Sequence record: MN148435
Strand: one strand, 5' to 3'
DNA from: Shigella phage SGF2
DNA length: 64,000 nt
The notes below the pieces were generated by a model. It saw only the letters and a program-made list of their open reading frames with translations, made no database searches and was not told the DNA's origin. The stretch's first letter is position 1. Every line of letters begins with the position of its first letter. Made by a program: the position numbers and the translations under genes. Of this stretch, positions 42,166 through 62,858 are shown piece after piece.

Positions 42166-42171
42166 ATATCC

Positions 42172-43374: not shown

Positions 43375-43376
43375 TG

Positions 43377-43601
43377 TTAGATACCTTTAAGTTTAAGAAT
43401 TTCGTTACGAGTTTTTTGAATCTGAGCTTCAATTTCGAAGTAGTCGTTGAACGCATCGTTCTCTACTTCATCGGATGGTGCATCAATCAGACCGAAAGCG
43501 AACGGATACAGCTTTCGCTGCTCCGTTACTAATTCGATATGAACTCCTATGTAATACTGTAGGAGAGTGATCTTCGGTTTCTTAGGAACCAGATTTGACA
43601 T
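43377..43601 (-). CDS. hypothetical protein
   Basis: 74-aa ORF between ATP-grasp and amidotransferase genes. Confidence 0.3.
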   Translation of the reverse strand: MSNLVPKKPKITLLQYYIGVHIELVTEQRKLYPFAFGLIDAPSDEVENDAFNDYFEIEAQIQKTRNEILKLKGI

Positions 43602-43815
43602 GAGGTTCTACCTTAATGCCTTTGATTTTTACATAATCAGCAAGCACGTTGTTGATCACCGTTGGGAAAGGAACCTCAACCTGTGTCTCAAGTACTTGAC
43701 CAATACCAGCTTGCATCCACTTCTGGATTGCACGAAGGTTATCACATCCTGTGCTCGTCATCGGGATACGTCGAGTAGTTACAACGTTATCCAGCATCAT
43801 CTTACGAATTTCCAT
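43582..43815 (-). CDS. hypothetical protein
   Basis: 77-aa ORF. Confidence 0.3.
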   Translation of the reverse strand: MEIRKMMLDNVVTTRRIPMTSTGCDNLRAIQKWMQAGIGQVLETQVEVPFPTVINNVLADYVKIKGIKVEPHVKSGS

Positions 43816-43817
43816 AC

Positions 43818-45848
43818 TTAACCTCTATTCAATGAACATTTAGGAGAATTACAATAAACTTGATTCATAGAACCAAGCGTACAACTTTCAGCATCGCGCC
43901 ACGGAATCTGCTTAAAACACTCTGAGCAGTAGCCGAGGGTTGACCACATGGCTTTGGTGAAGTCAGTGCTTCGGTTTCCGTCGAAGCTGACAACAGTTTT
44001 GCGGAGAGCTGTTCGTGATTCAGGAAACACACCTGCTTTCTCAGCAGGTTCCTCCTTTTTTGGCTTAGTTGAGATTGCAAAAATACTGTTGCTACGTTTC
44101 TCAACATAAGCATCAACAACATCCTCCAGAGTGATGCCTGTCTGTTTCGCTGAGGAAGGTAATACAGTCATACGACCAATCATATCTTCAGTTACACGTA
44201 AAGCAAATTCAGGACGACGGGCGTTTGTTGTATCTGTTGCTTTAATCCAGACATAACCATCTTTGATCGTAGCATTAGATACTTTCTTCTTTACATCTAC
44301 AGCGCAGACTTTACAGATATCTTCACCACGAAGACGACTAAGTTCATCATCGAACTCGTTCTCTGTTTTAACTTCACCGCAGATTTCACAAACACCAATA
44401 GGAGTTTCCTCCTCTTCTTCATCTTTAGGTTTAGTCAAACCTTCCAGACATTCAGGGTGCCAGTAGCACTGATATGCGAAGACTGCTTTAGGTGCATCCT
44501 TCCAATCAATGTGTTTGTCACAACCACCGCAATCACCATGAGAGTGTGCTTCCCAGAATTTACGAGTGATAGTAACGCCATTCTTATTGACGAAACTATC
44601 ATTCATGTCAAAAGGGATATCATCATCGAAGTCAGCGGTAGTAGACTCAGGCTCCTTTTTCTCCAGAGATGGGTCAACAAAACGACCTGCTGTGATCACT
44701 AAACGAACCATAGCATTAACTTCGGAGATGCAGGATACTGTCCCACGGTAAACAATTTTAGGGTCTTTCAGGGCATCCTGATAAGCCTTAATGTCTACGT
44801 TATGAACATCACCTTCGATATACTCTTGAGACTTCTCATCGTAGATATAACCAATCATCTTACCACGAGAAGGAACAGCACCAGCTGTTGCATAAGGAAC
44901 AAACTCATGTGGTGTGATTTCCACAGTCATATCGCGGCGAATGTCAATGTTTCGATCGCTTGCGATTTTGTTTTGACTTACCACTGCGTTTCTTCGACGA
45001 ACGTCTGCCGCTGTCACTCCCGGCTTCGTGTCGTAAGGATTGCTTGTACTGCTTTTTGAGGAACTTTGATAATTGCTTTGGCTGTAGTTGTTCGAGTAGT
45101 AATTGCCCCAACGATTGATTACCGTAAAAACCGGAAGCTCGTGGGCGACCTCTTCAACTAGAGTCATACTGTTGTTTGACATGTCAAAGATATACTCTGT
45201 ACCAACTTTACATTCAAAGTGCTCATCAATACGGTTCTTGTGAGACTTAGAACGCTTCAGAATCCACATCAACATGTCTTCTTCAGAAGCACCAAACCAA
45301 TCTCTGTTACAACGTGCGAGATGGAATGGACGCTCTTCGTTACGGATGATATGAAGACGGTTGTCAGAAGCATCATGCCAGATTAAGGTGAAAGCACCAT
45401 CCAGCTTTTGAATAGTCTCTGCTGCACCAATAGTGTTAATAGAGTGGCAGATGTTCTCACTGTCTACCTCGAAGTTTTTGCTGTCAGGTAACAGATCTTG
45501 GTCCATCAAGGTTCCGTTATGAACCAGAGTGATGTTACCATGTTGGAAAGGATGGGCGTTCTTGGCGTTAACTGCACCTTTCGTTGCATGACGGCTATGA
45601 CCAACAATCCATGAAGGTGCTACAGTGTAAGCTGTTTCACCAGTGGTGTGCTTCTTGTACTCATCTTGAAGGATGAATGCGAAAGAAGGAAGGGCTTCTT
45701 TATAGGTGAAGACTTCCTTAGTGCTCTTACGCTGACCAAAGATACCAGAGGAATGTTGTCCTCGGAACACTCCAGCATAAAAGAGTTGGTTGAATACGTC
45801 TAAATCAGTGCTTGACAGATTACCGCCAGCTAATACGATGCCACAAAT
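43818..45848 (-). CDS. class-II (Ntn) glutamine amidotransferase-like protein with C-terminal Cys-rich Zn-ribbon region
   Basis: reading frame extends upstream of track start to I-CGIVLAGGNLSS... (Ntn Cys nucleophile pattern); AGGTGG RBS; no in-frame ATG after a TAG, so ATT start or readthrough implied; C-terminal CxxC clusters. Confidence 0.55.
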   Translation of the reverse strand: MCGIVLAGGNLSSTDLDVFNQLFYAGVFRGQHSSGIFGQRKSTKEVFTYKEALPSFAFILQDEYKKHTTGETAYTVAPSWIVGHSRHATKGAVNAKNAHPFQHGNITLVHNGTLMDQDLLPDSKNFEVDSENICHSINTIGAAETIQKLDGAFTLIWHDASDNRLHIIRNEERPFHLARCNRDWFGASEEDMLMWILKRSKSHKNRIDEHFECKVGTEYIFDMSNNSMTLVEEVAHELPVFTVINRWGNYYSNNYSQSNYQSSSKSSTSNPYDTKPGVTAADVRRRNAVVSQNKIASDRNIDIRRDMTVEITPHEFVPYATAGAVPSRGKMIGYIYDEKSQEYIEGDVHNVDIKAYQDALKDPKIVYRGTVSCISEVNAMVRLVITAGRFVDPSLEKKEPESTTADFDDDIPFDMNDSFVNKNGVTITRKFWEAHSHGDCGGCDKHIDWKDAPKAVFAYQCYWHPECLEGLTKPKDEEEEETPIGVCEICGEVKTENEFDDELSRLRGEDICKVCAVDVKKKVSNATIKDGYVWIKATDTTNARRPEFALRVTEDMIGRMTVLPSSAKQTGITLEDVVDAYVEKRSNSIFAISTKPKKEEPAEKAGVFPESRTALRKTVVSFDGNRSTDFTKAMWSTLGYCSECFKQIPWRDAESCTLGSMNQVYCNSPKCSLNRG

Positions 45849-45927
45849 TTTCTAATCCACCTGAAGGGTAAACCCTTTCATCTAATTAACCTTTAAATTG
45901 TGCCCCTTTATCAGAGGCACCCATTGA

Positions 45928-47031
45928 TTACAGCGCTTGCTCTAACTGATTTTCCAGATGATCTGGAATGTACCCTGTGATATTGCTATCACTGTGACCT
46001 GACTCACGCAGTAAGTCAAAAATAGCACGGATACGTTGCTCTGGTGCAGATCGTACAGTAGATAGATCAGTTGTACGAAGCATAACCAGAATCTCTTGGT
46101 ACAAGTTGTTAGCGTTCCCTCGGACATATCCAAGGAATCCGTAGAAGTCTGAGATATGACGTAGATCAACAAGAACTTCTCCGTTGGAGTTGGTTCGACG
46201 TAAACGAATACGACCAGACTGTTCTACTTCATGAGAACGACAATACAAAACATCACGGGCCATACAATAACCTGAATGCAAATCCGATTCATCCAGATTG
46301 TAATCCAGAGGAAGGTAAGGAAGCATTGGGGCAAATCGTACAGTATTTAAATGCTCAATAAACTGATCATTGCTCATCTCTGCGTTATCTAAAGCCAGCT
46401 TCTTCAACATCAAGAAGCGGTTAACCAGATTGAGAAGTTGACCACGTTTCCACTTAGGCTCACTGATACGGAACTCGATCGAACCGTATTGGGCAAGTGG
46501 CAGAAGATTCAGGGATGTATACTTATCCCATGAACGAACCAGACGGTTGAAGAATTCTTCATCGTCGTAGTTAAATGCGTCAGAGGCATTCATTACCTGT
46601 GCTTGTACCACTGCGAAAGCAGGGCAGAAGTTGCTACGGTAACGATGATAGCCTGAACACTTGAACAACATCTTTTCATAGAAGGTCCAAGCGAGAATGG
46701 TTTTCTTGAGGATATTACTATCAGCATCCCTCATATCCATATGAACGTGAGTAGAGCAACGCCAAGTCCCCTCGGCGTGCGATTCAGCTACTGCTTCACT
46801 CAGGTTGTTGATAGCGTCTAACAACTCCTGTCCGTTGTAAGGTCGTGAACATACCATTTCACAGCCATTACGCAGGGAACCATCCTCTGTACAATCCCAC
46901 ATATCTGCTTCGATATGGTCGGAGCCTTCGAGTTCTAGTTCGATACCGACACCGCACTGAAGTGCAATTGAACTATGCGCCTCAGTTAAACGACCTTCTC
47001 GATATCCAAAAGTTTGCGCTACAGTTGTCAT
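45928..47031 (-). CDS. glutamine-synthetase-like amidoligase (carboxylate-amine ligase fold)
   Basis: VGIELELEG...EDGSLRNGCEMV...GTWRCSTHVHMD resembles GS-like amidoligase motifs. Confidence 0.5.
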   Translation of the reverse strand: MTTVAQTFGYREGRLTEAHSSIALQCGVGIELELEGSDHIEADMWDCTEDGSLRNGCEMVCSRPYNGQELLDAINNLSEAVAESHAEGTWRCSTHVHMDMRDADSNILKKTILAWTFYEKMLFKCSGYHRYRSNFCPAFAVVQAQVMNASDAFNYDDEEFFNRLVRSWDKYTSLNLLPLAQYGSIEFRISEPKWKRGQLLNLVNRFLMLKKLALDNAEMSNDQFIEHLNTVRFAPMLPYLPLDYNLDESDLHSGYCMARDVLYCRSHEVEQSGRIRLRRTNSNGEVLVDLRHISDFYGFLGYVRGNANNLYQEILVMLRTTDLSTVRSAPEQRIRAIFDLLRESGHSDSNITGYIPDHLENQLEQAL

Positions 47032-47645
47032 AACGAATCCACCAACGTAATATTATAATTGCTAAGGTTTTCAGAAATGTGATGAAAGTGTTCCAGAAGT
47101 CGCATCGGTTGCTGACCATAAGAGTCACGAGGCGCTTCCAGATCTACTTGCCCTACCAGTGCACCTTTATAATGCACCTTACCATCCGTAGGGTTGATGT
47201 AAATATAACGAGTGACCAATCCATCAAACTCTGGATTGAATAGACTGTAAACCATCTCCCCAGAGATAGAACGACCAATCCCAGGAGCATTTCGAATCTT
47301 GTTACCCATCAAACCCTTTGCTCTCTGACGAACAGGGTTAATGTGAGTCCAGCTTACAGTGTTACCGTTATGGAACAGATAACCAACATCAGGTGATTCA
47401 AGAATCAAGGTTGGGTCGAACACTGGAATATTCATCGTAGTGTTTCGAAGGTGCCCTTGCTCATTCTTGTACCACTGCTCTACAACAAAATACAGAGCCT
47501 GTTCTGCTTCGTGAGAGAAGTCATCGCTGCGGAAGTTACCGCTCTGCTCGACACCAATCACAAAACATGGAAGGTTGATATTACCTGCTCGTTTAGCAAT
47601 CCATGTACCATTATAGTAATGAGAAAAATCAGCTACTAAGCTCAC
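47028..47645 (-). CDS. hypothetical protein
   Basis: 205-aa ORF, translationally coupled to neighbours. Confidence 0.35.
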   Translation of the reverse strand: MSLVADFSHYYNGTWIAKRAGNINLPCFVIGVEQSGNFRSDDFSHEAEQALYFVVEQWYKNEQGHLRNTTMNIPVFDPTLILESPDVGYLFHNGNTVSWTHINPVRQRAKGLMGNKIRNAPGIGRSISGEMVYSLFNPEFDGLVTRYIYINPTDGKVHYKGALVGQVDLEAPRDSYGQQPMRLLEHFHHISENLSNYNITLVDSL

Positions 47646-47654
47646 GATAACCTC

Positions 47655-48461
47655 TTATGCTACCTGAAGGAGTTTGATCTGCTGGTCCGCTTCTTTAACG
47701 TTGTTGCCGTTAATGATTTCATGAAGCTTCTCAATCGGAAGGCGAGAGTGTAATGCCATCAGAGTGGACATATCACACTGCTGAACAACTTTGTCAACCT
47801 GATCGTAAACAAACTTACGGTTTTCACGATCGCTAATCCAGAAGTTAGACAGTGAACGGTATTCGATACCATAGTCTTTATAACGGATTGCAGACGCTTT
47901 ACCGTAGAGTTCTTTACGGCGAGTATCTTTATCCATAATAACTGCTGGGAGGGACAGGAAGTAGTCACACAGCACACCCAACATCATCTGAGTTTGCAGG
48001 GTGATATCCAAAGCACCAACTACGCCGAGATGTACGTGACCACCGGCAGTACGAAGCCCTTTATTCTGAGAAGTCGGGGATGGATTCTTCTGACCAGTGA
48101 AAGCGTTGAAATCAGGAGTACATCCGAAGATGAACGCTGATTCATTGAAAGTCTTCATCTCTTCTTCAGTGAAGATGTGAGAGCTAACACCCGGAGCTGT
48201 TTCCATGTCCAGTTTGTTCAGGACATTGTTGGTGAGATCGATACCACGTTGCATGTTATCGTTAAACGCTTCAAAGCCGCTCTGTGGGTCAATATCAAAC
48301 TCAGCCAGTACGTTGTCCTCTTGAAGACGAACATCCTTAGCCAGAGTGATCTTATCGTCCTTAGAACAACCTAACAGACCAGCTACAGAGGTGATAATAC
48401 CATTGCTGGTACGAACAAACATTTCAGGGTCAGAGCCGATAAGGAATTTGCGCTTAGTCAT
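47655..48461 (-). CDS. hypothetical protein, possibly second divergent GS-like ligase
   Basis: N-terminal FLIGSDPEMFV loosely resembles GxExE strand of amidoligases; weak. Confidence 0.3.
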   Translation of the reverse strand: MTKRKFLIGSDPEMFVRTSNGIITSVAGLLGCSKDDKITLAKDVRLQEDNVLAEFDIDPQSGFEAFNDNMQRGIDLTNNVLNKLDMETAPGVSSHIFTEEEMKTFNESAFIFGCTPDFNAFTGQKNPSPTSQNKGLRTAGGHVHLGVVGALDITLQTQMMLGVLCDYFLSLPAVIMDKDTRRKELYGKASAIRYKDYGIEYRSLSNFWISDRENRKFVYDQVDKVVQQCDMSTLMALHSRLPIEKLHEIINGNNVKEADQQIKLLQVA

Positions 48462-49425
48462 TGTAATACTCCACTAGTTCAGAAAAGAGAGATGAGATTG
48501 TGTTACCAACTTCTTCAGTAGTAAGGCCAGAGCTTGGACCAGTACGCTGAATTAGTCGGGCTGTAAAGTTTTGTACTGTAATGTTTCCCAACTTGTCGTC
48601 TATTGATTCACGTTTGTGACCATAACAGTTGGACCAGAGTCTTAACCACTCTGACATTGTTTCATACTCGTCCGGGTCTTGATCTTTAGCACGAGCAAAT
48701 CTTCGTAAGGCATCTTGGTTATGGTTACGAACATAACCGTCCTTGTTGTCACCAACACCGAAGGGGTTTTGCACCCATACTTGTTTCGTGTATTCATCAG
48801 AGTCTACAACCAAAGGAAGGAATGCTGCTGCTGACATATTGTTATTAACAACAATAGAGGTGCTCTCGCTACTCCCATTGGCTCTTCCTCGTTGAGACCA
48901 TCCACCGAAGAAGTCACGACCCAACCCAGCTAACACTAGAGCGATGCCGATGCGCTTACGCTTCAGCCACTCTTCCCTGTCTTCAATTCCTTCTGCTAGG
49001 AAATCCATTCCACGATACTGCCCTTCCAGAATGCTACGGAAGAGCATAAGTCCTGTGAAGATTTGATCTGCTGGATGCTCACGGAGGTTGACAGCAACAC
49101 TATTCGCTGAAGTGATCGTAAATATACCACGATAGCAAGACATAGAGTTCATAATGTCTGCTGTTTCAACCAAGTTCTTTTCAATGTCAGATGCAGCGAG
49201 ACCATGAAAAGAGTGAGTCCAGTAATTCAACATCTCCAATTGCAAGTTAATGTCACGGTTGAAGCGTTTATGACGCCCTTCTTCCATGACACATTCGTCA
49301 TTAACATCATATACGACTTGACCTTGCATGTAGTTGTGAATACCGAAGCACCCACGACCTAAGAACTTCTGTTCCCCTAAATCCTGTTGAAGATTAAGAG
49401 GTACGATCGTTGTGGAGATTGCCAT
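48454..49425 (-). CDS. hypothetical protein
   Basis: 323-aa ORF. Confidence 0.35.
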   Translation of the reverse strand: MAISTTIVPLNLQQDLGEQKFLGRGCFGIHNYMQGQVVYDVNDECVMEEGRHKRFNRDINLQLEMLNYWTHSFHGLAASDIEKNLVETADIMNSMSCYRGIFTITSANSVAVNLREHPADQIFTGLMLFRSILEGQYRGMDFLAEGIEDREEWLKRKRIGIALVLAGLGRDFFGGWSQRGRANGSSESTSIVVNNNMSAAAFLPLVVDSDEYTKQVWVQNPFGVGDNKDGYVRNHNQDALRRFARAKDQDPDEYETMSEWLRLWSNCYGHKRESIDDKLGNITVQNFTARLIQRTGPSSGLTTEEVGNTISSLFSELVEYYND

Positions 49426-49435
49426 AACTAACCTT

Positions 49436-50632
49436 TTATTTTCCTAAAAATAATCCGCTCATAATACCATCCCATTCAGAGGATGGAAACACCGAATACT
49501 CTGAACTTTGGTCCAGAGTTCCGCTACTGAATCGCTGAACAATATTATAAATATTGAACATATCTTTAGTCTCAGCGCGATAAGCGTAGACTAATCTGTC
49601 AGCTGTTCTTTCATCTTTAGATACCCGACGAGCAAAGGTAACCAGAAGGTTGTCACCTTTGAGTATTTCTGACTCATCTTTTACTAGATCAGGGTGCATA
49701 ACCGGCAAGAACATCGAGTTATTAACTCGTAATTCTGCTGTTTCATCATTCTCATAATGAATCCACTTAAAGTCTTCATCACGGAAGTGACCGCATCCAT
49801 CTCTGTACGACTGCTGACGCCAAGGCACTTTAAACGCTTCAGTATACTTATCAGCCATACCAACTGTAAATAGCGACGCTGGGAAGATACAAGCATCCCA
49901 ATCATTACCGACCAGAGTTGCTTTCGTTTCACCCAAGAGGTTAGTGTAAGTGCTAACCATTCGTGAGTAAACGTAAGCCTGAAGAATTGTCCAGCCTTCA
50001 ACCAACCATTTATGAAGGAAGGTTTCAACTTGACTCTCTTCATCTTCACAATAGAAGGTTCGATCTAACATCAAATAGAACAGACAACGATCAGCAGGAA
50101 CATTCTCAGTTGCTACCCCCATAAAACCTTTCTCGTGCCAGCGTAAACAGGAGGGACGATCTTTGTCCACAAATGCTTCCATAGCTTCCAGTACAGCACG
50201 AGGTGTGGTTTGATGTTCAGGATTTTTATTATTCCAACGATCAATGTTATTCTTAGGAGGTGTGTCTTCATCTTCATACGAACACCAACTTAAAGCTTCA
50301 GCTACGTGCTTTTCATCACGCCAGCGTCTAAAACCTAACATCTTCATGTGAGTTCCGGAGTTCCAGATATGCTTGATTTTACACATATCCATCTCTCGGC
50401 TTAACAGGAACTCTTCCCCATCAGCACTACGAACGTTAGCTTCTTCATGCCACACTCGAACGTGCATATTCCACCCATGAGTTGCCTCATACATGTTAGG
50501 GTCGAAGTATTCATCTTCGTCATCGTCTTCATCAACGCCACCGTTATAGTTGCGAAGCTGAAGGAACCCATAACAAGGAGGGTTGACCGTTAAAACATTA
50601 CCTTCAGTATCTTCTAATGTTACTGGAAACAT
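49436..50632 (-). CDS. hypothetical protein
   Basis: 398-aa ORF, Trp/acidic-rich. Confidence 0.35.
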   Translation of the reverse strand: MFPVTLEDTEGNVLTVNPPCYGFLQLRNYNGGVDEDDDEDEYFDPNMYEATHGWNMHVRVWHEEANVRSADGEEFLLSREMDMCKIKHIWNSGTHMKMLGFRRWRDEKHVAEALSWCSYEDEDTPPKNNIDRWNNKNPEHQTTPRAVLEAMEAFVDKDRPSCLRWHEKGFMGVATENVPADRCLFYLMLDRTFYCEDEESQVETFLHKWLVEGWTILQAYVYSRMVSTYTNLLGETKATLVGNDWDACIFPASLFTVGMADKYTEAFKVPWRQQSYRDGCGHFRDEDFKWIHYENDETAELRVNNSMFLPVMHPDLVKDESEILKGDNLLVTFARRVSKDERTADRLVYAYRAETKDMFNIYNIVQRFSSGTLDQSSEYSVFPSSEWDGIMSGLFLGK

Positions 50633-51392: not shown

Positions 51393-51635
51393 CTACTTAT
51401 CCCCACCAAAGGCGAGGTAGGCATCTTTGATTTCAGTAACCTGTGAATCAGGTTTGAATGCAGACAGGTGTCCTGTGTTCAGGTTAACTGCGTTGGCAGG
51501 GATGATGCAACCCTCAACTTTAGTGTCAGGGATTCTCATGTAGTAACTTGAAAAGTGCTCAGCTGAGAAAACTTCCCCAATAGAGATATCACCAATCTTC
51601 GCTAGAACATCCTTAGCTGGTTTCCCTATTTTCAT
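51393..51635 (-). CDS. small paralogous-family protein (member A)
   Basis: 80 aa; family pattern IGDISIGEVF...YYMR...AVNLNTGHL. Confidence 0.45.
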   Translation of the reverse strand: MKIGKPAKDVLAKIGDISIGEVFSAEHFSSYYMRIPDTKVEGCIIPANAVNLNTGHLSAFKPDSQVTEIKDAYLAFGGDK

Positions 51636-51868
51636 TACTCACCTTTCTTAGCACGATCTTTGGCAGTTTTGCCAGTGCGGATACGATGGGAAACGTTAAC
51701 CAGAGTGCCACCATCAATTACAGTAACGCTCTTGTTTTTAGCCAGATCAAACACAGTCTTCTCTGTGCCACCCAAGCGAATTTGCTTAGGCTCACTGAAG
51801 GTTTGGGTTGATTTGGATTGGAACTGGAACGGTTGACGGATTGCATCGATTGCGCTTACTTTAGACAT
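51635..51868 (-). CDS. small basic hypothetical protein
   Basis: 77-aa ORF; not obviously a family member. Confidence 0.35.
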   Translation of the reverse strand: MSKVSAIDAIRQPFQFQSKSTQTFSEPKQIRLGGTEKTVFDLAKNKSVTVIDGGTLVNVSHRIRTGKTAKDRAKKGE

Positions 51869-52099
51869 AGGGGAAATTCCTTAAAAAGTTATGGCTGCGT
51901 AGAGGGAATTCCCTACGCAAATTGGGCCGCCCACAGAGAGGCGTCATAGTACTAAAAGGAGGAGAGAAGAGGGCTTATTTAGCTACCTTTTTCTGTCCGT
52001 TTACGAACCAGATAATTGAACCGTCAGGCTGTCGTTGACCGAAGCCTTTCATGTTGGTCATTTCTTCTGTAGAATCATTAAATGTGATCACTTGTTTTC

Positions 52100-52348
52100 C
52101 TATGGAGTTAAGATAATTTCAGCCTTACTAAACTTCTCACCAACAACCATATCTCCAGAGATAACACGCAGTTCTCCAGTGCCCAAATTAACAGCTCCAG
52201 CAGGTTGACAACCCCTGCTCTTAGCTGTCAGCATGTAAATCTTTTGAAGATGGCACTCTTGGAGAGTGAACACATCTGACATATTTAGATCTTTAACACG
52301 GAGGACTGTTTCCTCTTTGCTCTTAACTTTAATATGAATAGTGCCCAT
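52100..52348 (-). CDS. small paralogous-family protein (member C)
   Basis: LRVKDLNMSDVF...IYML...AVNLGTGEL. Confidence 0.45.
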   Translation of the reverse strand: MGTIHIKVKSKEETVLRVKDLNMSDVFTLQECHLQKIYMLTAKSRGCQPAGAVNLGTGELRVISGDMVVGEKFSKAEIILTP

Positions 52349-52350
52349 AA

Positions 52351-52596
52351 TTACTCCTGAATCACTGACATACGAATCATTTCTACCTGATCATCAAGAC
52401 CTTTAACAGATAGTACACCTGTGGAAAGGTTTACCACAGGAACCCAGCCACTGGCTATACGGATATTACCAGAAGCATTTTCAACCCTCATATAATATTG
52501 AGGAGAGGCACTTCCGTGCTGTACCACAAAGGGGTTTCCGGGAATGATCGTTTCCAACCGTACCGTATTATCCTTTTTCTTTGGGATGATTTTCAT
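52351..52596 (-). CDS. small paralogous-family protein (member D)
   Basis: LETIIPGNPF...YYMRV...VVNLSTGVL. Confidence 0.45.
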   Translation of the reverse strand: MKIIPKKKDNTVRLETIIPGNPFVVQHGSASPQYYMRVENASGNIRIASGWVPVVNLSTGVLSVKGLDDQVEMIRMSVIQE

Positions 52597-52847
52597 TTAG
52601 AACCCTTAATAACGTTAGCTTCAACTTTAACAGGGATAACAGGAATACCCTCGACCGGACCACTCAGATTACCATCTTCCAGCCTGACACACACTACTCG
52701 ATCTCGTGCAACTTCCACCCAATTAGTAGATGCATCAGTGCAGACCATGTGTATTGGTCCATTCTCCTCTAAACGAAATGTATCACCCTTCTTCAGAGTA
52801 TGGAGTTTCACAGTCTTGGTAGTTCTATTTAATTCGTTAACTTTCAT
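52593..52847 (-). CDS. small paralogous-family protein (member E)
   Basis: LHTLKKGDTF...VRLEDGNLSG. Confidence 0.4.
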   Translation of the reverse strand: MKVNELNRTTKTVKLHTLKKGDTFRLEENGPIHMVCTDASTNWVEVARDRVVCVRLEDGNLSGPVEGIPVIPVKVEANVIKGSK

Positions 52848-52855
52848 ATTGATTC

Positions 52856-53167
52856 CTATTTAAGTTTGAGGCTAATGTTAAGGTGCATACATGCCCTGTT
52901 CTGTACAGCAGCATAACTTCTACCGAGCATGTCAGCCATTCTCTGAATAGACATGAACCCAGCATTACGGATAAGGAACTGATCTTCTTCTTTAGACCAC
53001 TTAACTCGGATTACAGCTCTAGAGATACCGAACTTAGTGCAAGCTGTATTAACTGCATTCTCCGTTACATTCATAATCTGAGCAACCTCTTGAACCGAGT
53101 ACTCTTTGATTAGTCTCCGAAGATTTTCAATCTGCATCGGAGTCCATATAGTTCTTCGTGCTTTCAT
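52856..53167 (-). CDS. DNA-binding protein with two tandem HTH (SANT/Myb-like) repeats
   Basis: internal repeats WTPMQIENLRRLIKEYSVQEVAQIMNVTENAV / WSKEEDQFLIRNAGFMSIQRMADMLGRSYAAV. Confidence 0.4.
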   Translation of the reverse strand: MKARRTIWTPMQIENLRRLIKEYSVQEVAQIMNVTENAVNTACTKFGISRAVIRVKWSKEEDQFLIRNAGFMSIQRMADMLGRSYAAVQNRACMHLNISLKLK

Positions 53168-53474
53168 ACATCCTCCAATTAAACATTTATATAAGACTTG
53201 CTTAGATAAAGATTCAATAAAATAGGGGGAGGGGACGAATCCTCCCTTATCCTATTAGTTAATATTGCATGTAAGATCTAACAATCGGTTGCCTTTGTAG
53301 GAATAAGCGTAAAGCCAATCCAGCACTAAACTCCCGCCCCCCTTAGTGGGCTGGGTTATTAAAGGGTAACGCCCTTATGGGCTAGTTACGTGAATGTTAG
53401 TTTGATAGGAGATCTGAAGTCCTATCTCAAAGGACTCTCGTAAGAATCCTTCACGATATTACTTATCCAGCTCC

Positions 53475-53696
53475 TTAGTAGACCAAACCTATAGCCTTTG
53501 CATCAGGCTGAGGGACTACTTTTGCACTAGGACGATAGCCATCCACTGAACCATTCCAAAGGTTGACACAGGTAATATACCCATCGTTCAAGTAGTCTGT
53601 TTTAATCCAGAAGTGTTTATCATGACCAAAAATACTTCCATTTGGAAGGGTGGACAGTTCAACAGTTTTAAGGGATTGTTTAGAATCTAATTTCAT
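53475..53696 (-). CDS. small paralogous-family protein (member F)
   Basis: LSTLPNGSIF...FWIKTDY...CVNLWNGSV. Confidence 0.45.
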   Translation of the reverse strand: MKLDSKQSLKTVELSTLPNGSIFGHDKHFWIKTDYLNDGYITCVNLWNGSVDGYRPSAKVVPQPDAKAIGLVY

Positions 53697-53705
53697 ATAA
53701 GTTCC

Positions 53706-53903
53706 TTAATACACCAAGCCATGTAAGAGAAACACTCTCTTAGTTAACTCTACTTTAGCTCTGTAATAAGCCTTAGAACCTAACAGTCGGCGTTTAACAA
53801 AGAACTTAATGTCATTGCTAACATCTTGTATTAAACGCTCCTGTACAGCTTCTGAGGAGCCATTAATCGAATCAATTAACACCTTTGTAGATGTGTAATT
53901 CAT
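53706..53903 (-). CDS. hypothetical protein
   Basis: start MNYTSTK 1 nt after lipoprotein stop. Confidence 0.3.
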   Translation of the reverse strand: MNYTSTKVLIDSINGSSEAVQERLIQDVSNDIKFFVKRRLLGSKAYYRAKVELTKRVFLLHGLVY

Positions 53904-53904
53904 A

Positions 53905-54204
53905 TCACCACTCTTTACCGGTTGTAATCGTAGAGCCACCACACCACAACGCTGTATCAATCACAACATTGTCTGGCGTAGACTTCTCTTCGTTGATAGA
54001 AGGGTTAGCATTAGAGCAGGTTGCTCCGTTCCAGCGCATATCAATCTCACCAGAAGGAACCTTCTCACCTTTATGCCAGCGAGATACACAAATACCATCC
54101 ACTGCTACTGCACACCATCCATCAGGACGGCTCTGTACGCAGCCTGTAAGGGCCACACAGACAAGGAAGATACAGATTAAGGATATTACACCACCCCAAC
54201 TCAT
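53905..54204 (-). CDS. Cys-rich lipoprotein (superinfection-exclusion candidate)
   Basis: signal peptide MSWGGVISLICIFLVCVALTGC with lipobox LTGC; 8 further Cys. Confidence 0.5.
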   Translation of the reverse strand: MSWGGVISLICIFLVCVALTGCVQSRPDGWCAVAVDGICVSRWHKGEKVPSGEIDMRWNGATCSNANPSINEEKSTPDNVVIDTALWCGGSTITTGKEW

Positions 54205-54223
54205 AACTATCTCCTATTAGATT

Positions 54224-54299
54224 TGGTGCACCCTACAGGACTCGAACCTGTAACCAACGACTTAGAAGGTCGCTGCTCTGTCCATTGAGCTAAGGGTGC
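54224..54299 (-). tRNA. tRNA-Arg (anticodon UCU), CCA encoded
   Basis: minus-strand GCACCCTTAGCTCAATGGACAGAGCAGCGACCTTCTAAGTCGTTGGTTACAGGTTCGAGTCCTGTAGGGTGCACCA folds as cloverleaf: 7-bp acceptor, D-arm GCTC/GAGC, anticodon loop CTTCTAA, T-loop TTCGAGT. Confidence 0.85.
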
Positions 54300-54308
54300 T
54301 AGATTTGT

Positions 54309-54518
54309 TTAACTAAAGATACGAATGGCTACATCGTGACCGATATGACCGGGAACTTTATGCTGTTCTATTTTCAAACAGTGTTTACAGATACGAGATA
54401 CACGAGATTCTTTTCTCTCGACCGGAGTGTCTTTAGCGTGGGTGATATGTAGGTTCTCAGTGATCACCCACTCGTGTTTACATCCAGAATCTTCGGGCTT
54501 TTTCTTACGAAAGAACAT
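54309..54518 (-). CDS. small zinc-finger protein, paralogue 1 of 3
   Basis: start MFFRKKKPEDSGCKHEW...RICKHCL. Confidence 0.4.
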   Translation of the reverse strand: MFFRKKKPEDSGCKHEWVITENLHITHAKDTPVERKESRVSRICKHCLKIEQHKVPGHIGHDVAIRIFS

Positions 54519-54526
54519 AACACCCC

Positions 54527-54691
54527 TTAGATCAGATCTGTTTTCTTGTGCAGACCACACACTTTACAGCGAGAGTAGATACGCAACCCTTGTCGCTCTC
54601 TGTCAGTAAGTTTATTTGTGATCGTCAGTTCATAAGTATGAAGATCTTCCCACTCATGGAAATGAAAGAAGCGTTTGAACCATTTGATCAT
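54527..54691 (-). CDS. small zinc-finger protein, paralogue 2 of 3 (54 aa)
   Basis: ORF below cut-off MIKWFKRFFHFHEW...RCKVCG. Confidence 0.4.
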   Translation of the reverse strand: MIKWFKRFFHFHEWEDLHTYELTITNKLTDRERQGLRIYSRCKVCGLHKKTDLI

Positions 54692-54700
54692 AATGATTCC

Positions 54701-54862
54701 TTAGATTACATCACGATGACTAACATCACCACACACCTTACACTGAATAACGTAACGTGTGCCCTTGTCATTATTCCCATCTGAATCTGTATAGACCAGA
54801 GGGCGAGTATTAATAATCTTCCAATCATGACAATGAAAGACACGCTTTAGCCACTTGAACAT
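54701..54862 (-). CDS. small zinc-finger protein, paralogue 3 of 3
   Basis: start MFKWLKRVFHCHDW...QCKVCGD (internal Met of track ORF). Confidence 0.4.
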   Translation of the reverse strand: MFKWLKRVFHCHDWKIINTRPLVYTDSDGNNDKGTRYVIQCKVCGDVSHRDVI

Positions 54863-54869
54863 ATTAACC

Positions 54870-55121
54870 TCAAGCACAAGCAGGGAGAGTGATGATTTTA
54901 TACTGACCTTCAAACTCTCCAAACAAACCCAAGAATGTAGGACTGTAAGTACCAGTACAAACAAACTCATCAAACAATTCGTTATAGCTAGGCTTGATCT
55001 TCCAAGCCCATACATAACCCATTTTGTCAATTGCAATGTAACGAGAGTTCAGAGGAACAGTCATCATCACATCATCAACTTCAATCACTTTAGTGATTGG
55101 TGCAGCTTGGAAGTTTTTCAT
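54870..55121 (-). CDS. hypothetical protein
   Basis: 83-aa ORF. Confidence 0.3.
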   Translation of the reverse strand: MKNFQAAPITKVIEVDDVMMTVPLNSRYIAIDKMGYVWAWKIKPSYNELFDEFVCTGTYSPTFLGLFGEFEGQYKIITLPACA

Positions 55122-55303
55122 ACTTTACCTTTGATGAAAATATCATTACCACAGACACAGCATGAACGAACAACAGTAGCGCCACGCTGAACGATACGAA
55201 CCTCTTCTTTAACCAGATTAACACGAGCACCACAGCAAGGAGAGTTAACATAAGAGTAACCAGCTTGTGTATTCTTGATTGTTTGCTTAGACATTTGATT
55301 CAA
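55118..55303 (-). CDS. small zinc-ribbon protein
   Basis: CCGAR...CCVCG. Confidence 0.3.
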   Translation of the reverse strand: MNQMSKQTIKNTQAGYSYVNSPCCGARVNLVKEEVRIVQRGATVVRSCCVCGNDIFIKGKV

Positions 55304-55643
55304 GATCTCTCAGTTGTTTAGCCAATTGTTCGCACTCGTTGATGCAGAACTCTTCTGTTCTTGGAACCCCATTAGGGTTGAACCATGTCTTATCACCTGC
55401 ATGGGCACAATCAAATCCGACTGTATTTAAACCACCCATTTCTTCGAGAGAATCCTGCCACGTAACACCGCCATGGACGTTGACATAACAAACCTCTTCC
55501 TCGTCCCCATTATATCCGGTGAAGTTTTTACTGCTCAGAGTATCTGGCAACTCCACATACCCACATAAGTGTGAGTAGTTCATGTGCATAATCACAGCAC
55601 GAAGACCTGATTTAGTTTCCCAATCTTTAACTATGCGTCTCAT
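55287..55643 (-). CDS. hypothetical protein
   Basis: start MRRIVKDW with AGAGGTG RBS. Confidence 0.35.
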   Translation of the reverse strand: MRRIVKDWETKSGLRAVIMHMNYSHLCGYVELPDTLSSKNFTGYNGDEEEVCYVNVHGGVTWQDSLEEMGGLNTVGFDCAHAGDKTWFNPNGVPRTEEFCINECEQLAKQLRDLESNV

Positions 55644-55694
55644 ATAAGCACCTCTTGTTAGTTTAAGTAAGAGCTGTCCCTTAATTAAAACAAC

Positions 55695-55718
55695 AAAGGC
55701 CACCCGAAGGCAGCCTTT
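55695..55718 (-). terminator. hairpin terminator (possibly bidirectional)
   Basis: AAAGGC..CCCGAAGG..GCCTTT hairpin flanked by T-rich tracts on both strands. Confidence 0.35.
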
Positions 55719-55721
55719 CTT

Positions 55722-55931
55722 TTATTGACTCACGCCACGAATCAGATGATTCTGTAGCGTTTCGTCTTCTGCATTATAAAGGAATGCGAACATCAATTCC
55801 TTAGCCACATCTCTTGAGCAATTAAGACACTTAGAGATTTGCGTTAGTTGCATGTTGCGATCAGTGTGTTCCATCAAGGCAATGCGAATGATCTCTCGCA
55901 TACCTATTACATGGGTTGTTTTAACCGGCAT
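55722..55931 (-). CDS. hypothetical protein
   Basis: start MPVKTTHVIG...; small 46-aa ORF lies upstream. Confidence 0.3.
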   Translation of the reverse strand: MPVKTTHVIGMREIIRIALMEHTDRNMQLTQISKCLNCSRDVAKELMFAFLYNAEDETLQNHLIRGVSQ

Positions 55932-56289
55932 AGGTCCAATTACCTTGCTTATTACGGATGGCTGACATTGCATGAACCCAGAAGCCTTCCAGTTTCAGAG
56001 CACCGTTAGCTACTGCATCCATACGTTCAGGGCGGTTCATACGTTTGGTTGATACTTTCATACCTATCTCTCTTTGTTAGTGGAGGCATTATTGCCAGTT
56101 GATATAAGGGATAGCCCTAGTCAGGAGGCTAACTCTGACCGCGTACTCATTGCCGACCTTCTCTGCCTAAGAGTTCAGGTTCTAGAGCTATCTCTTATTC
56201 CAACTGGTGAAGACTCCCTACCCCTAGGAAGTCTCCTGAATCCCAAACCAATATGTACCCCTACATATCAGAAAGTCTTTCGAAAATTA

Positions 56290-56425
56290 ACAGGTTTTAG
56301 TCTAGCACCGGATGTTCGAGCAAGCTCTCCCTAGCGGTGTGGCATATGCCTGATTAATAAGTTAATGAGGAACACCCTCACATAGCCCTCTGATAAACAC
56401 AAGGGCTATAAGTCGGTGTTACTTT
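56290..56425. repeat. repeated non-coding element R2 (3' of small-protein family gene)
   Basis: GGATGTTCGAGC...CCTAGCGGTG...TGAGGAACACCCTCACATAGCCCT-loop-AGGGCTAT...GTTAC; related to R1. Confidence 0.4.
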
Positions 56426-56637
56426 TGAGATAAACACAGATCAGGACGTGGCATAACAGTGGTTGATAGGCCGAAGACTTCAACAGAACCACTATTCAAG
56501 TCAGCAGCTTTACACAAACCGTCAGGAGTTTTATCTTCTAGCATCAGCCAGAAACGTCTATCGTAAGAGAAAACATCACCGCCCTTAACGTCTTCTGCAT
56601 TTGCATATTTAGGATAATCGACTACTTTAATTTCCAT
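56419..56637 (-). CDS. small paralogous-family protein (member G)
   Basis: VKGGDVF...FWLMLED...ADLNSGSV. Confidence 0.45.
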   Translation of the reverse strand: MEIKVVDYPKYANAEDVKGGDVFSYDRRFWLMLEDKTPDGLCKAADLNSGSVEVFGLSTTVMPRPDLCLSQK

Positions 56638-56641
56638 CTAC

Positions 56642-56896
56642 TTACCCTTTGTTGGTGATTACAACATCATGAAGTACAATAACCTTGCTTTTTGAGCTGA
56701 GCTTAAGGACTTGCTTGTTTGTTAGACTGAGGACGACACAACCACCATCAGAGGGTTTAGTCTCCTCAACCTGCGATCTAAACAGATGAACAACCATGTA
56801 GAAATCTGCTCGTGTTTCCTTGATTTGGAATACATCTCCGAGTTTAAGATCACCAACACACAAAGACGGTTCATTTACTTCAAGATTAATCTTCAT
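56642..56896 (-). CDS. small paralogous-family protein (member H)
   Basis: LKLGDVF...FYMVV...VLSLTNKQV. Confidence 0.45.
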   Translation of the reverse strand: MKINLEVNEPSLCVGDLKLGDVFQIKETRADFYMVVHLFRSQVEETKPSDGGCVVLSLTNKQVLKLSSKSKVIVLHDVVITNKG

Positions 56897-57122
56897 CTTT
56901 AGCCTCTATGTTAGTTATGTGGAGATCACTGCGTACTTGGCAAACTTCATCCCGTTTAAAAGGCATGAGCTTTCCAGTTACCACATCAACACAGTTGACA
57001 TAATTGTCTGCGTACAATGTGTCGGTTCTAATGTAAAGGGACTCTTTACGCTCAAACAGAACTCCCGGCTTCATGTTATTTAAGCGAAGCATGGTATAAT
57101 TAGGTTTAATATTAACTTTCAC
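56886..57122 (-). CDS. small paralogous-family protein (member I)
   Basis: MKPGVLF...YIRTD...CVDVVTGKL. Confidence 0.45.
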   Translation of the reverse strand: MKVNIKPNYTMLRLNNMKPGVLFERKESLYIRTDTLYADNYVNCVDVVTGKLMPFKRDEVCQVRSDLHITNIEAKDED

Positions 57123-57373
57123 TAATCCACCTTATTGGTAAGACGAACGTTATCAATCAACTGGACGTTGGTGTCACTTTTCAGTACGGTAACTTTATCC
57201 GATACTAGATCTAATACAACTCTCCAACTACCCATTAAACTGTACTGTCTAATACTACTCGCATCTAATTTGACAACCAGATAAATCTTCTTTTTAGGTG
57301 GGATAGTTTCAAAAACATCACCAACCTTCAGTTCCTTCAGTTGTTTAACCACAGGCACTGTATTGATATCATG
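57122..57373 (-). CDS. small paralogous-family protein (member J), probable GTG start
   Basis: LKELKVGDVF...YLVVKLD...VVLDLVSDKV; GGAG RBS before in-frame GTG; longer track ORF overlaps upstream gene. Confidence 0.35.
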   Translation of the reverse strand, partial: HDINTVPVVKQLKELKVGDVFETIPPKKKIYLVVKLDASSIRQYSLMGSWRVVLDLVSDKVTVLKSDTNVQLIDNVRLTNKVD

Positions 57374-57665
57374 CTTCACTATTAATCTCCTGCTGCTTAG
57401 CAATAGCCACTCGCAAGTCTTCATTAGCACGAGCAAGGCGCAATACTTCATGGTTGAGATTCTGAAGACGCTTGTTTCTGTCCTCAACTTGCATAATAAG
57501 ATCGTTAAGAGTTGCTTTAACTTTCTCATTATACATCTCATCCACTCGGACTAGAGATTTGTACATTCTCTCCCAGCTTGCTGCTTTGTTTCTTAGAACA
57601 ATAAATCCTAGAACGCTGACAGTTAAACAGCTTACAAAAAGGAATTTATATACTTCTAAAGTCAT
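57369..57665 (-). CDS. membrane-anchored coiled-coil protein
   Basis: N-terminal TMD FLFVSCLTVSVLGFIVL then heptad-like helix. Confidence 0.35.
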   Translation of the reverse strand: MTLEVYKFLFVSCLTVSVLGFIVLRNKAASWERMYKSLVRVDEMYNEKVKATLNDLIMQVEDRNKRLQNLNHEVLRLARANEDLRVAIAKQQEINSEA

Positions 57666-57864: not shown

Positions 57865-58254
57865 TTACTCCATAGAGCTATTATCAAACACTAAATCACC
57901 ACAATACATAGGATTGGCATACCATTTTGGCACCCCTTCGCTCTTACTCTGAAAGTAAGTCCCACTGTACAGCGGAACATAATTCTTCTTAAGGGCACGT
58001 TTAGCAAGTCGCTCGCTTTCTCCAATGGCTTGCTTAGTCATCGGATTTTTATCACGAATCAGCTTTACATAACGTTTATAAGGTTTCTCCTGTTTTAATA
58101 GTACCGGAATCCACTCAAACTGGTTCTTTTGTCTTATCACCTGTTCAGCGGTCAGTTTTCGTTGAGCCATTCTATTTATCACGGTATCCGCAACTAAAGC
58201 CTTACATGCGGTTGGCTGGTTCCCTGCCTCATAATAAATAGTCAATGTCAACAT
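57865..58254 (-). CDS. SleB-like cell-wall hydrolase domain protein
   Basis: TIYYEAGNQPTACKALVADTVINRM...KNQFEW resembles SleB/Hydrolase_2 core. Confidence 0.5.
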   Translation of the reverse strand: MLTLTIYYEAGNQPTACKALVADTVINRMAQRKLTAEQVIRQKNQFEWIPVLLKQEKPYKRYVKLIRDKNPMTKQAIGESERLAKRALKKNYVPLYSGTYFQSKSEGVPKWYANPMYCGDLVFDNSSME

Positions 58255-58386: not shown

Positions 58387-58686
58387 TTACTTTTTTACAT
58401 ATATTGCCAGTGGCGACTTGGTGTTTAGTGGAGTGAAGTTCATGTCCAGTTTATACCCCATCTTGAAAACCATTTCCAACAACATATCGACGGAGAACTT
58501 TGAAAGCTGTCCATTCATAAGGTTACTAATCCTTGGCTGGCTAACACCTAGCTTCTCTGCGGCAACACACTGCGACCAACCCTGATCACGAATTAACTTC
58601 GTAAGAATGATGATCAGCTTGGACTTCAATGAAAGCACGTTGACCTCTACAGGGTCTGTACTTATTAGCTCGAATGGGTTTTTCAT
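58387..58686 (-). CDS. HTH XRE-family DNA-binding protein (antitoxin/repressor-like)
   Basis: DQGWSQCVAAEKLGVSQPRISNLMNGQLSKFSVDMLLEM. Confidence 0.6.
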   Translation of the reverse strand: MKNPFELISTDPVEVNVLSLKSKLIIILTKLIRDQGWSQCVAAEKLGVSQPRISNLMNGQLSKFSVDMLLEMVFKMGYKLDMNFTPLNTKSPLAIYVKK

Positions 58687-61079: not shown

Positions 61080-62858
61080 CTTTCAATTGTAAGGGCACTA
61101 TGCCCCGCTCTCTATGAGCTTGTTTAAGTCACTATTAACTTATCTCTAACCACTCACTTTTTTAAGTAGTTACAGGTAAGCGAGGCGGTCTTATCAGGAG
61201 TTAACCTTGCCGCCTCCTTATCCGTGATGTTTCATCTGGTATCTTTAATTAGTCGCTATAAACGAAGCCGACCTGATAGCGATGATCAATCATCACAATA
61301 AGGCAGTGCGTCCGACTCTAATTAGTTACGTTTATTGTAACCGTCGGCAATATCGTCTACTTTGCTTTCGCTCTCGCCTATCCTTTTGTATCAACTCTCA
61401 ATCACTAGCCATCGCCCACAACGGGATGCTATTGTGAAAGAGTCATTGACCGTCTAATGTTCTGACGTTTTATATCTTTCGGCAAGTTTACTACATAAAC
61501 CGACTATGTACTTTCATCTTGTGATGAATCTCAAGCCGTTCACATCGTAAACGTTCACACTAAACCTTATTGTTAAATAGCAATTTGCCACTTTTTAACC
61601 GCTCCCCGCCGCCCTCAATTGGGCGTTAATTTGTCGGACTTGCCTACCCTGATTAACTTCTTTCACTGTAGCACCATGTTAGCGATGACCGCCGCTACCC
61701 TTAACCGTGGGCGATTAGCTTAAGTCTTTGCGTGTACTCAATGAATCCGTCTATCAGTGGTGACGTTTCCAGTAAGGGAATGTAAGGCTGTTTTCTCTGA
61801 TAGTTTAGAGAGTCTTACACCGTTTTATCTGGTATGCTTTCCGATGGTTATTATCATCAAGCATATTCAACCGATATAGGAGAACGTTTAAATTATTAAA
61901 GAGCGGTAAATCTATCAGTGTACTTTCTCACACTATGCAACTGTTAGCCGTTGTTACGCTTTTCACTGAAGCGATGATTTGCTTAGTGAGTGCTCATTAT
62001 GAATCATGTTGTTTTCGCTGTCAACCGCTTTTTAATCTTTTTCGTCGTTCCCGCTATTGGGAGGATATATCAATCAGCTTTATTTGATTGAAGATTAAGC
62101 GGTGAGGCTTAACTTATGACTCATATTGTTAAAGAGCGTTTAGCCTTTTAAAGTGTCTGCTAATCACTGTCACATTGAAGGCTTACTGATTCATTAACAG
62201 GACGCCTAACCCTGAACTACTCGCCGCACTATGTGCCACCTTTCCCGCGATACGTTGACTTGGGAACTAGTTAACGTTGTTTTGTTAACTTGTGGTTAGT
62301 ATGGACTACCTTAACCACGTTTGCAACTCTTTTTTATCATCTTCTTTTAATTCCTTTCCCTTATCTCGCTTGAATCTTTGCGAAAGGGCAAGATGATAAG
62401 TTTTTAAAGAGCGGAGATATTTTAAGTCATCGCTGACTATGCTCACTATATATCAGGCTTTTTCTGGTGTCAATACTCTTTTTAAGTATTTTCACTTTCT
62501 AGCCTGATTTTTAAAGAGCGGGGCAAGTTTCCTTGCCTTGTATGTTTTTCATCGTACCCGATGAATTGAAGTATACGCCAACCAATGTGTAATGCAATAG
62601 GGTAAAGCAAATTATTTTAAACTTTTTCATAGTGGGATAGGTAAAAGAACGCGCACGCGTGATACATCATAGAAAATAGCTTGTAAAGCATTATTTAACG
62701 GCCTGTAACGCATCACAACGAGCTAAAGGAGGGTAAGGAATACAATCACCTTAGAAATGAGAAAAGCCTCACTAGGAGGCTTACAGGAAGGATTTAAAGC
62801 AACAGATACAGTAGGACCATAGGCATGACTACGGCACAATATAGGAGAAAGATTAAGC
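61080..62858. promoter_or_regulatory. 1.8-kb ORF-free repeat-bearing region (candidate early promoter cluster / origin / terminal region)
   Basis: no ORF of 60 aa or more in six frames; four copies of TTAAAGAGCG at 61896, 62129, 62404, 62511; duplicated TTT(C/T)ATCTGGTAT(C/G)CTTT at ~61226 and ~61820; CACTATA-like elements. Confidence 0.4.
62753..62782 (-). terminator. rho-independent terminator (minus strand)
   Basis: minus-strand AAGCCTCC-TAGT-GAGGCTT then TTTCTCATTTC, after 62859-63230. Confidence 0.45.

Follow-up and report, generated by a model that had tools for sequence, protein, structure and literature searches.

Shigella phage SGF2, which its sequence places in the genus Kuravirus (Gordonclarkvirinae, phiEco32-like), encodes an expanded family of small paralogous proteins. 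In the 64,000-nucleotide stretch of record MN148435 that we analysed (hereafter the window, to which all positions refer), nine open reading frames (ORFs), here called m1 to m9, lie on the minus strand between 51393 and 57379 and are homologous to one another. A reading made from the sequence alone had proposed such a family; that observation is correct, and its statistical basis is solid. The products, 72–85 amino acids (aa) long, are predicted to be stand-alone SH3-like small beta-barrel proteins with five or six antiparallel strands, and they belong to a large set of unannotated phage proteins. A role as host-takeover or anti-defence binders, also suggested by the sequence-only reading, is plausible, and the family is best treated as an unproven candidate for it.

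A family of nine paralogues

The motifs first noticed by eye, MK[IV], L..L..G[DN].F, Y[MI] and V[ND]L.[TS]G, all appear as conserved columns in the alignment, with F23 (m1 numbering) invariant among the nine. Global pairwise identity is low, at 18–35%, and the copies are nonetheless true paralogues: Smith–Waterman z-scores rise to 15, and the significant pairs join all nine in one connected graph. Each copy in turn was held out of a hidden Markov model (HMM) built from the other eight, and the model was searched against every ORF of 40 aa or more in the window, 629 in number; the copy left out always ranked directly after the eight builders (E from 2.6e-6 to 1.8e-13), and unrelated ORFs of the window had E > 0.2. 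Held-out copies scored 22.7–45.7 bits, as against maxima of 4.4–9.6 bits for shuffled sequences (300 shuffles each), and the shared motifs are thus significant against shuffled controls. A tenth family member was not found in the window, even with a broader HMM of 141 sequences.

All nine ORFs occur on the strand and at the coordinates where they had been placed, apart from the start of the ninth, and each has a Shine–Dalgarno-like sequence 5–9 nucleotides (nt) 5' of its start. Because the codon at 57373, where m9 had been thought to begin, is CAT and no start codon, because AGGAG stands upstream of a GTG at 57379, and because the m9 orthologues start at the same residue (as MKHDINT, with ATG as the start codon in Bas90), we reset the most likely start of m9 to GTG 57379, which yields a protein of 85 aa.

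The genes are laid out as two clusters and two single copies. The first cluster (57379–56419) consists of m9 (57122..57379, 85 aa, GTG start), m8 (56886..57122, 78 aa, also GTG), m7 (56642..56896, 84 aa) and m6 (56419..56637, 72 aa), and the second (52847–52100) of m4 (52593..52847, 84 aa), m3 (52351..52596, 81 aa) and m2 (52100..52348, 82 aa); m5 (53475..53696, 73 aa) and m1 (51393..51635, 80 aa) stand singly. Within the clusters, m9 and m8 share 1 nt, the 3' end of m8 overlaps the start of m7 by 11 nt, the stop of m4 overlaps the start of m3 by 4 nt (ATGA), and the other gaps measure 2–4 nt. The ribosome-binding site of the downstream gene therefore lies within the 3' end of the upstream one, which indicates co-transcription and coupled translation. 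The nine products differ widely in isoelectric point (pI 4.7–9.5) and in net charge (−3.5 to +3.6), and neither signal peptides nor membrane segments were found in any of them.

Comparison of six Kuravirus genomes showed that each carries 8–11 family copies, which fall into at least 14 orthogroups. Six types are present in all six genomes: m2, m3, m5, m6, m7 and m8, which are the orthologues of phiEco32 gp95, gp96, gp104, gp113, gp114 and gp115, respectively. The other three types in the window, m1, m4 and m9, are variable and absent from phiEco32, and five more types have no copy in the window. Among the variable types, m4 is found in three of the six genomes, while m1 (which matches PHROG 12612) behaves as a variable cassette: it is shared by this phage and ev_rybdy3, and in Bas90 an unrelated 71-aa gene takes its position.

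A superfamily of unannotated proteins and its predicted fold

An exhaustive profile search returned, at E ≤ 1e-3, 1319 clusters formed at 50% identity. The 150 best listed clusters consist almost entirely of stand-alone proteins of 67–99 aa; about a dozen are fusions of two domains, and three are longer proteins with several domains. The family can be described by a length of about 70–85 aa and the pattern MK[IV]...L..G[DN].F...Y[MI]...V.L..G...V, and all nine copies match its profile over their full length. They match their own PHROGs with E of 1e-25 to 1e-47 and cross-match those of each other; seven PHROGs cover the nine (6570, 7832, 7431, 8365, 16423, 12612 and 9955), and 141 diverse members match 14, every one labelled ‘unknown function’. 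None of the nine copies or the 141 diverse members matched a Pfam SH3 model or any other credible Pfam model, NCBIfam gave no match for the family, and with PADLOC models all nine copies were without a match at E ≤ 0.1. These ‘hypothetical’ proteins had not been described as a group before, although their fold type is a known one, and the recognition that several separate ‘unknown’ PHROGs form one superfamily is useful for annotation.

Gp21 of phage N4 is a member at the sequence level (E 2e-16 against the family HMM) and the sole match within the first 30 kb of the N4 genome. We also considered N4 gp8, through which N4 inhibits the clamp loader of the host DNA polymerase, and rejected it as a member. 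Elsewhere, four scattered copies occur in Salmonella phage 7-11, a distant relative, and two to five adjacent copies in unrelated siphophage-like metagenome contigs, so that tandem arrays are a recurrent habit of the family. Searches by tblastn with the family consensus and with a distant member returned almost only Kuraviruses or nothing, the method being too insensitive at about 75 aa, and literature searches on Kuravirus early-gene paralogy, N4 gp21 function and small beta-barrel phage arrays returned nothing relevant.

Some public records give these genes more definite names. In the EcoN5 record two family members are named ‘endolysin’ and ‘endonuclease’ and the m9 orthologue ‘DNA helicase’; the last name is also given in related GenBank records to the 98-aa protein upstream of m9 (57369-57665), and small neighbouring early ORFs are called ‘terminase’ or ‘polymerase’ in related records (the loci concerned by such names are L006:7459-7692 and L006:3078-3308). 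All of these names are unsupported, and pointing out that ‘endolysin’, ‘endonuclease’ and ‘DNA helicase’ are unsupported labels on such tiny genes should itself aid annotation.

For the fold, AlphaFold2 models were built of m1 and m4, the two most divergent copies, m4 being the weakest member by sequence. Both models are all-beta and have a similar strand order, with six strand elements in m1 (predicted local distance difference test score, pLDDT, 75; predicted template modelling score, pTM, 0.66) and five in m4 (pLDDT 85, pTM 0.75). Foldseek searches of the PDB led for both to the same group of folds, headed by EF-P domain I and the eIF5A N-domain, Tudor, PWWP and SH3, with probabilities of 0.9–1.0 for SH3-like barrel matches. 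Among the independently built viral models of BFVD, the m1 model matched other Kuravirus paralogues and small proteins of many phages at template modelling (TM) scores of 0.6–0.8, including N4 gp21, proteins of Morganella MP2, Proteus Myduc and Vibrio Vp_R1, and others from Klebsiella, Erwinia, Pseudomonas and Yersinia phages. A small beta-barrel fold common to the copies, as had been envisaged, is thus borne out at the level of prediction. At the sequence level, the family profile weakly matches the Pfam SH3_3 repeats of a lysozyme (P0249) when weak hits over 11 repeats are summed, and hhalign aligned our family alignment A2 with nine SH3_3 (PF08239) repeats at a probability of 54%, over 28 columns only.

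Possible functions and the forces acting on the copies

Across the 141 members, conservation is limited to residues of the predicted barrel core (in m1 numbering M1, K2, I3, L17, G20, F23, Y32, M33, V50, L52, G55 and V66), while the beta3–beta4 loop and the tails vary and the non-conserved positions have entropies near or above 3 bits. Since only hydrophobic residues and glycines are conserved beyond the N-terminal Met-Lys, nothing stands out as a conserved catalytic or ligand-binding site. We put at about even the chance that the nine copies are non-enzymatic binding scaffolds directed at separate host or defence targets early in infection. In such a scheme host sigma70 RNA polymerase would transcribe the early region, with its two translationally coupled clusters and single copies; the same barrel would present a copy-specific surface in each protein; and each copy would bind its own host or defence macromolecule, blocking or redirecting it in the first minutes of infection. 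The BASEL study, in which Gordonclarkvirinae resisted restriction-modification and nearly all tested defences while carrying no known inhibitor genes, lends this reading circumstantial support.

Several points weigh against such binders. The number of family members with an experimental function is zero, and no known anti-defence or host-takeover protein was detectably related in the sequence-profile, Foldseek PDB, Pfam, NCBIfam, PADLOC and PHROG searches. Among the anti-defence proteins with solved structures (Ocr, ArdA, Acr, Tad, Acb and others), the PDB sequence-profile search brought up AcrIIC5 only, at an E of 0.75 that amounts to noise, and none was among the top 50 Foldseek PDB matches of the m1 or m4 models. 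Matches to solved structures are weak in general (Foldseek against the PDB, E 0.02–0.9, TM about 0.5), and hence there is no close solved relative. Conservation confined to the core is also what is expected of any old structural family, and the early timing comes from papers on relatives, not from measurement on this phage. Finally, RNA polymerase from phiEco32-infected cells carried gp36 and gp79 only, the pull-downs recovering no family member, and the polymerase is therefore no obvious target.

The main rival is that the copies bind nucleic acid or the ribosome, as KOW, EF-P domain I, Tudor or Sm-type barrels do, and act on RNA, DNA or translation of the host or the phage. The best solved-structure matches (EF-P domain I, eIF5A, PWWP bound to single-stranded DNA, Tudor) point this way, as does a Bacteroidota chromosomal protein, P0114 (L010:3583-5019), in which a SprT-like metalloprotease is followed by five Lys/Arg-rich repeats that match the family profile, a fusion that hints at DNA binding in some branches of the domain. 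The RimK-like and amidoligase enzymes encoded by the phage may be counted on the same side. However, the proteins have neither the hallmark loop nor the OB domains of EF-P, the fold matches are weak, and no conserved basic or aromatic surface residues were found in the 141 members. The nine copies are near-neutral and heterogeneous in charge, as their pI values show, and the spread in net charge argues against one common nucleic-acid target. We regard this rival as unlikely.

The sequence-only reading had also attributed the low identity between copies to old duplications under diversifying selection, and these two parts fared differently. That the duplications are old is supported. Orthologues across the Kuraviruses are mostly 85–100% identical, in contrast to the 18–35% between paralogues, and for most copies members from other phages outscore the best paralogue in the window (for m4, 47 representatives do so). 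Either the copies date back about as far as the family itself, then, or they were acquired separately. Diversifying selection as a current force did not hold up: whole-gene Nei–Gojobori dN/dS, the ratio of non-synonymous to synonymous divergence, was 0.02–0.46, mostly about 0.1, between orthologues with unsaturated dS, and thus each copy is under purifying selection between orthologues and is being maintained.

That an arms race now shapes the array through positive diversifying selection on each gene is accordingly a doubtful proposition, though some observations favour it. Orthologues vary most in the beta3–beta4 loop, with a mismatch per position within orthogroups of 0.31–0.46 as against 0–0.09 at core positions. 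Some orthogroups contain deep variants of 55–70% identity with saturated dS, most conspicuously m7, with its deeply diverged allelic forms, and m9, where the loop differs strongly between orthologues; in both, the central loop has effectively been replaced. Copy content, too, differs among closely related phages, and copies have been gained, lost and swapped among the six Kuraviruses. On the other hand, the dN/dS range applies to every orthologue pair with unsaturated dS, and the saturated dS of the deep variants fits recombination with diverged lineages better than fast change in place.

A broader extension of the binder reading would make the family a general evolvable phage scaffold, whose arrays with swappable loops form a repertoire that neutralizes different defences and host factors and so accounts for the broad resistance of Gordonclarkvirinae; we think this improbable as a whole. 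It is very improbable that the copies are oligomeric sponges for small immune-signalling molecules, akin to Tad or Acb. They are small, early, phage-abundant and multi-copy, and small barrels often oligomerize through edge strands, all of which would suit such a role, but no polar pocket residues are conserved family-wide among the 141 members, no solved sponge protein was matched by sequence or fold among the PDB hits, and nine different copies seem excessive for the few known signals. Least of all can we credit a chance or compositional similarity, or ORFs that are not real genes: the shuffle and leave-one-out controls refute it, and ribosome-binding sites on all nine ORFs, purifying selection on the orthologues and 1319 related clusters in public data speak against it as well.

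If the copies are indeed target-specific binders, the family would hold many uncharacterized inhibitors of host or defence proteins, in at least 1300 clusters with no Pfam or NCBIfam model, and would be a specific candidate explanation for the ability of Kuravirus-like phages, which are in use in therapy studies, to withstand most tested defences. A possible system for experiments is Bas90 of the BASEL collection, since it infects E. coli K-12 in which the O-antigen has been restored. We see the family as a useful lead rather than a surprise.

Genomic setting and comparison with known systems

About 100 E. coli phage genomes, among them ev_rybdy3, EcoN5, Bas90/Bas91, NJ01 and phiEco32, match the 7-kb family region at 92–94% identity. 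Members of the genus Kuravirus are prolate C3 podophages with genomes of about 77 kb. An N4/G7C-like virus was considered for SGF2 and rejected, as there are no RNAPII genes, an amidoligase cluster is present and the taxonomy of the relatives disagrees. In the phiEco32 group, the leftward genes of the right end are described as the early class, read by host sigma70 RNA polymerase; this temporal class rests on later papers that cite the primary phiEco32 work (Savalia, 2008; Pavlova, 2012). The early genes of relatives have been described as almost all hypothetical and as ‘likely host takeover’ (SU10 CDS, or coding sequences, 69–125; YF01 gp82–122), and the position of the array among mostly hypothetical genes matches the early class of these papers, as the sequence-only reading had it.

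Upstream of the early genes, the minus strand bears two promoters close to the sigma70 consensus that would drive the early unit, one at 62445..62473 (TTGACA-17-TATAGT) and a second at 61996..62024 (TTGACA-17-CATAAT). Both fall within an ORF-poor spacer of ~1.8 kb (about 61100-62850), and they are probably the counterparts of the SU10 early promoters, which the paper on that phage locates in an intergenic spacer within its set of early genes. Strong terminator-like hairpins on the minus strand (60148-60121, 58735-58716 and 55718-55695) stand within the early unit upstream of family genes, which calls for either transcriptional read-through or unrecognized internal promoters; terminator-like sites in the region number 20, as against 9.6 expected from shuffles.

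The neighbours of the family genes are as had been described, namely a lipoprotein, a tRNA, zinc-ribbon paralogues and a tandem-HTH (helix–turn–helix) protein. The phage lipoprotein gene (53905-54204; PF24052, E 3e-34) is separated from the zinc-ribbon genes by a tRNA-Arg gene (anticodon TCT; 54224-54299, minus strand) that is kept in related phages. The zinc-ribbon-like genes at 54527-54691 and 54701-55036 (the latter from an inner Met, MFKWLKR...; both minus strand) are clear paralogues (Smith–Waterman z = 19), to which 54309-54560 (minus strand) is weakly related (z = 4.3); a CxxC...CxxC protein at 55118-55303 (minus strand) has no significant similarity to them. The 103-aa tandem-HTH protein (52856-53167) is annotated as ‘D5-like regulator’ in relatives, and the region further includes an Xre-type HTH_37 protein (58387-58686) and a protein with a Hydrolase_2 cell-wall hydrolase domain (57865-58254). 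Adjoining the early region (41051-50632, minus strand), as it does in phiEco32, is a cluster of genes for amidoligase, glutamine amidotransferase, RimK-like ATP-grasp, COOH-NH2 ligase and gamma-glutamyl cyclotransferase proteins.

Of known systems, N4 gp21 and the seven unannotated PHROGs are the closest, resembling the nine copies in sequence, size, predicted fold and stand-alone architecture. As none of them has a function that is known, the match supplies a family and no mechanism; moreover, N4 carries one copy in its first 30 kb, whereas this phage carries nine. With SH3-like barrels at large (EF-P domain I and the eIF5A N-domain, Tudor, PWWP, eukaryotic SH3 and bacterial SH3_3) the family shares the predicted barrel and its size, but it differs in having no signal peptide, no cell-wall context and no Pfam SH3 match. 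It does not belong to EF-P or eIF5A: the proteins are single-domain, of 72–85 aa, without an EF-P match in Pfam or NCBIfam and alike at the level of the fold only, and they lack both the modified-Lys loop and the OB-fold domains. The last comparison is with phiEco32 gp79, whose structure is helical, with a hydrophobic groove, and binds the beta' N-terminus and clamp of RNA polymerase (PMC12276001). That any of the nine copies is itself this polymerase binder can be rejected, as the m1 and m4 models are all-beta, gp79 is encoded at another place in the genome, beside the RimK-like gene, and the PDB sequence-profile search at E ≤ 10 did not return it. Gp79 nevertheless comes from the same phage group, is likewise small, at 82 aa in the record of phiEco32, and acts by binding a host machine, which is the type of mechanism proposed here for the family.

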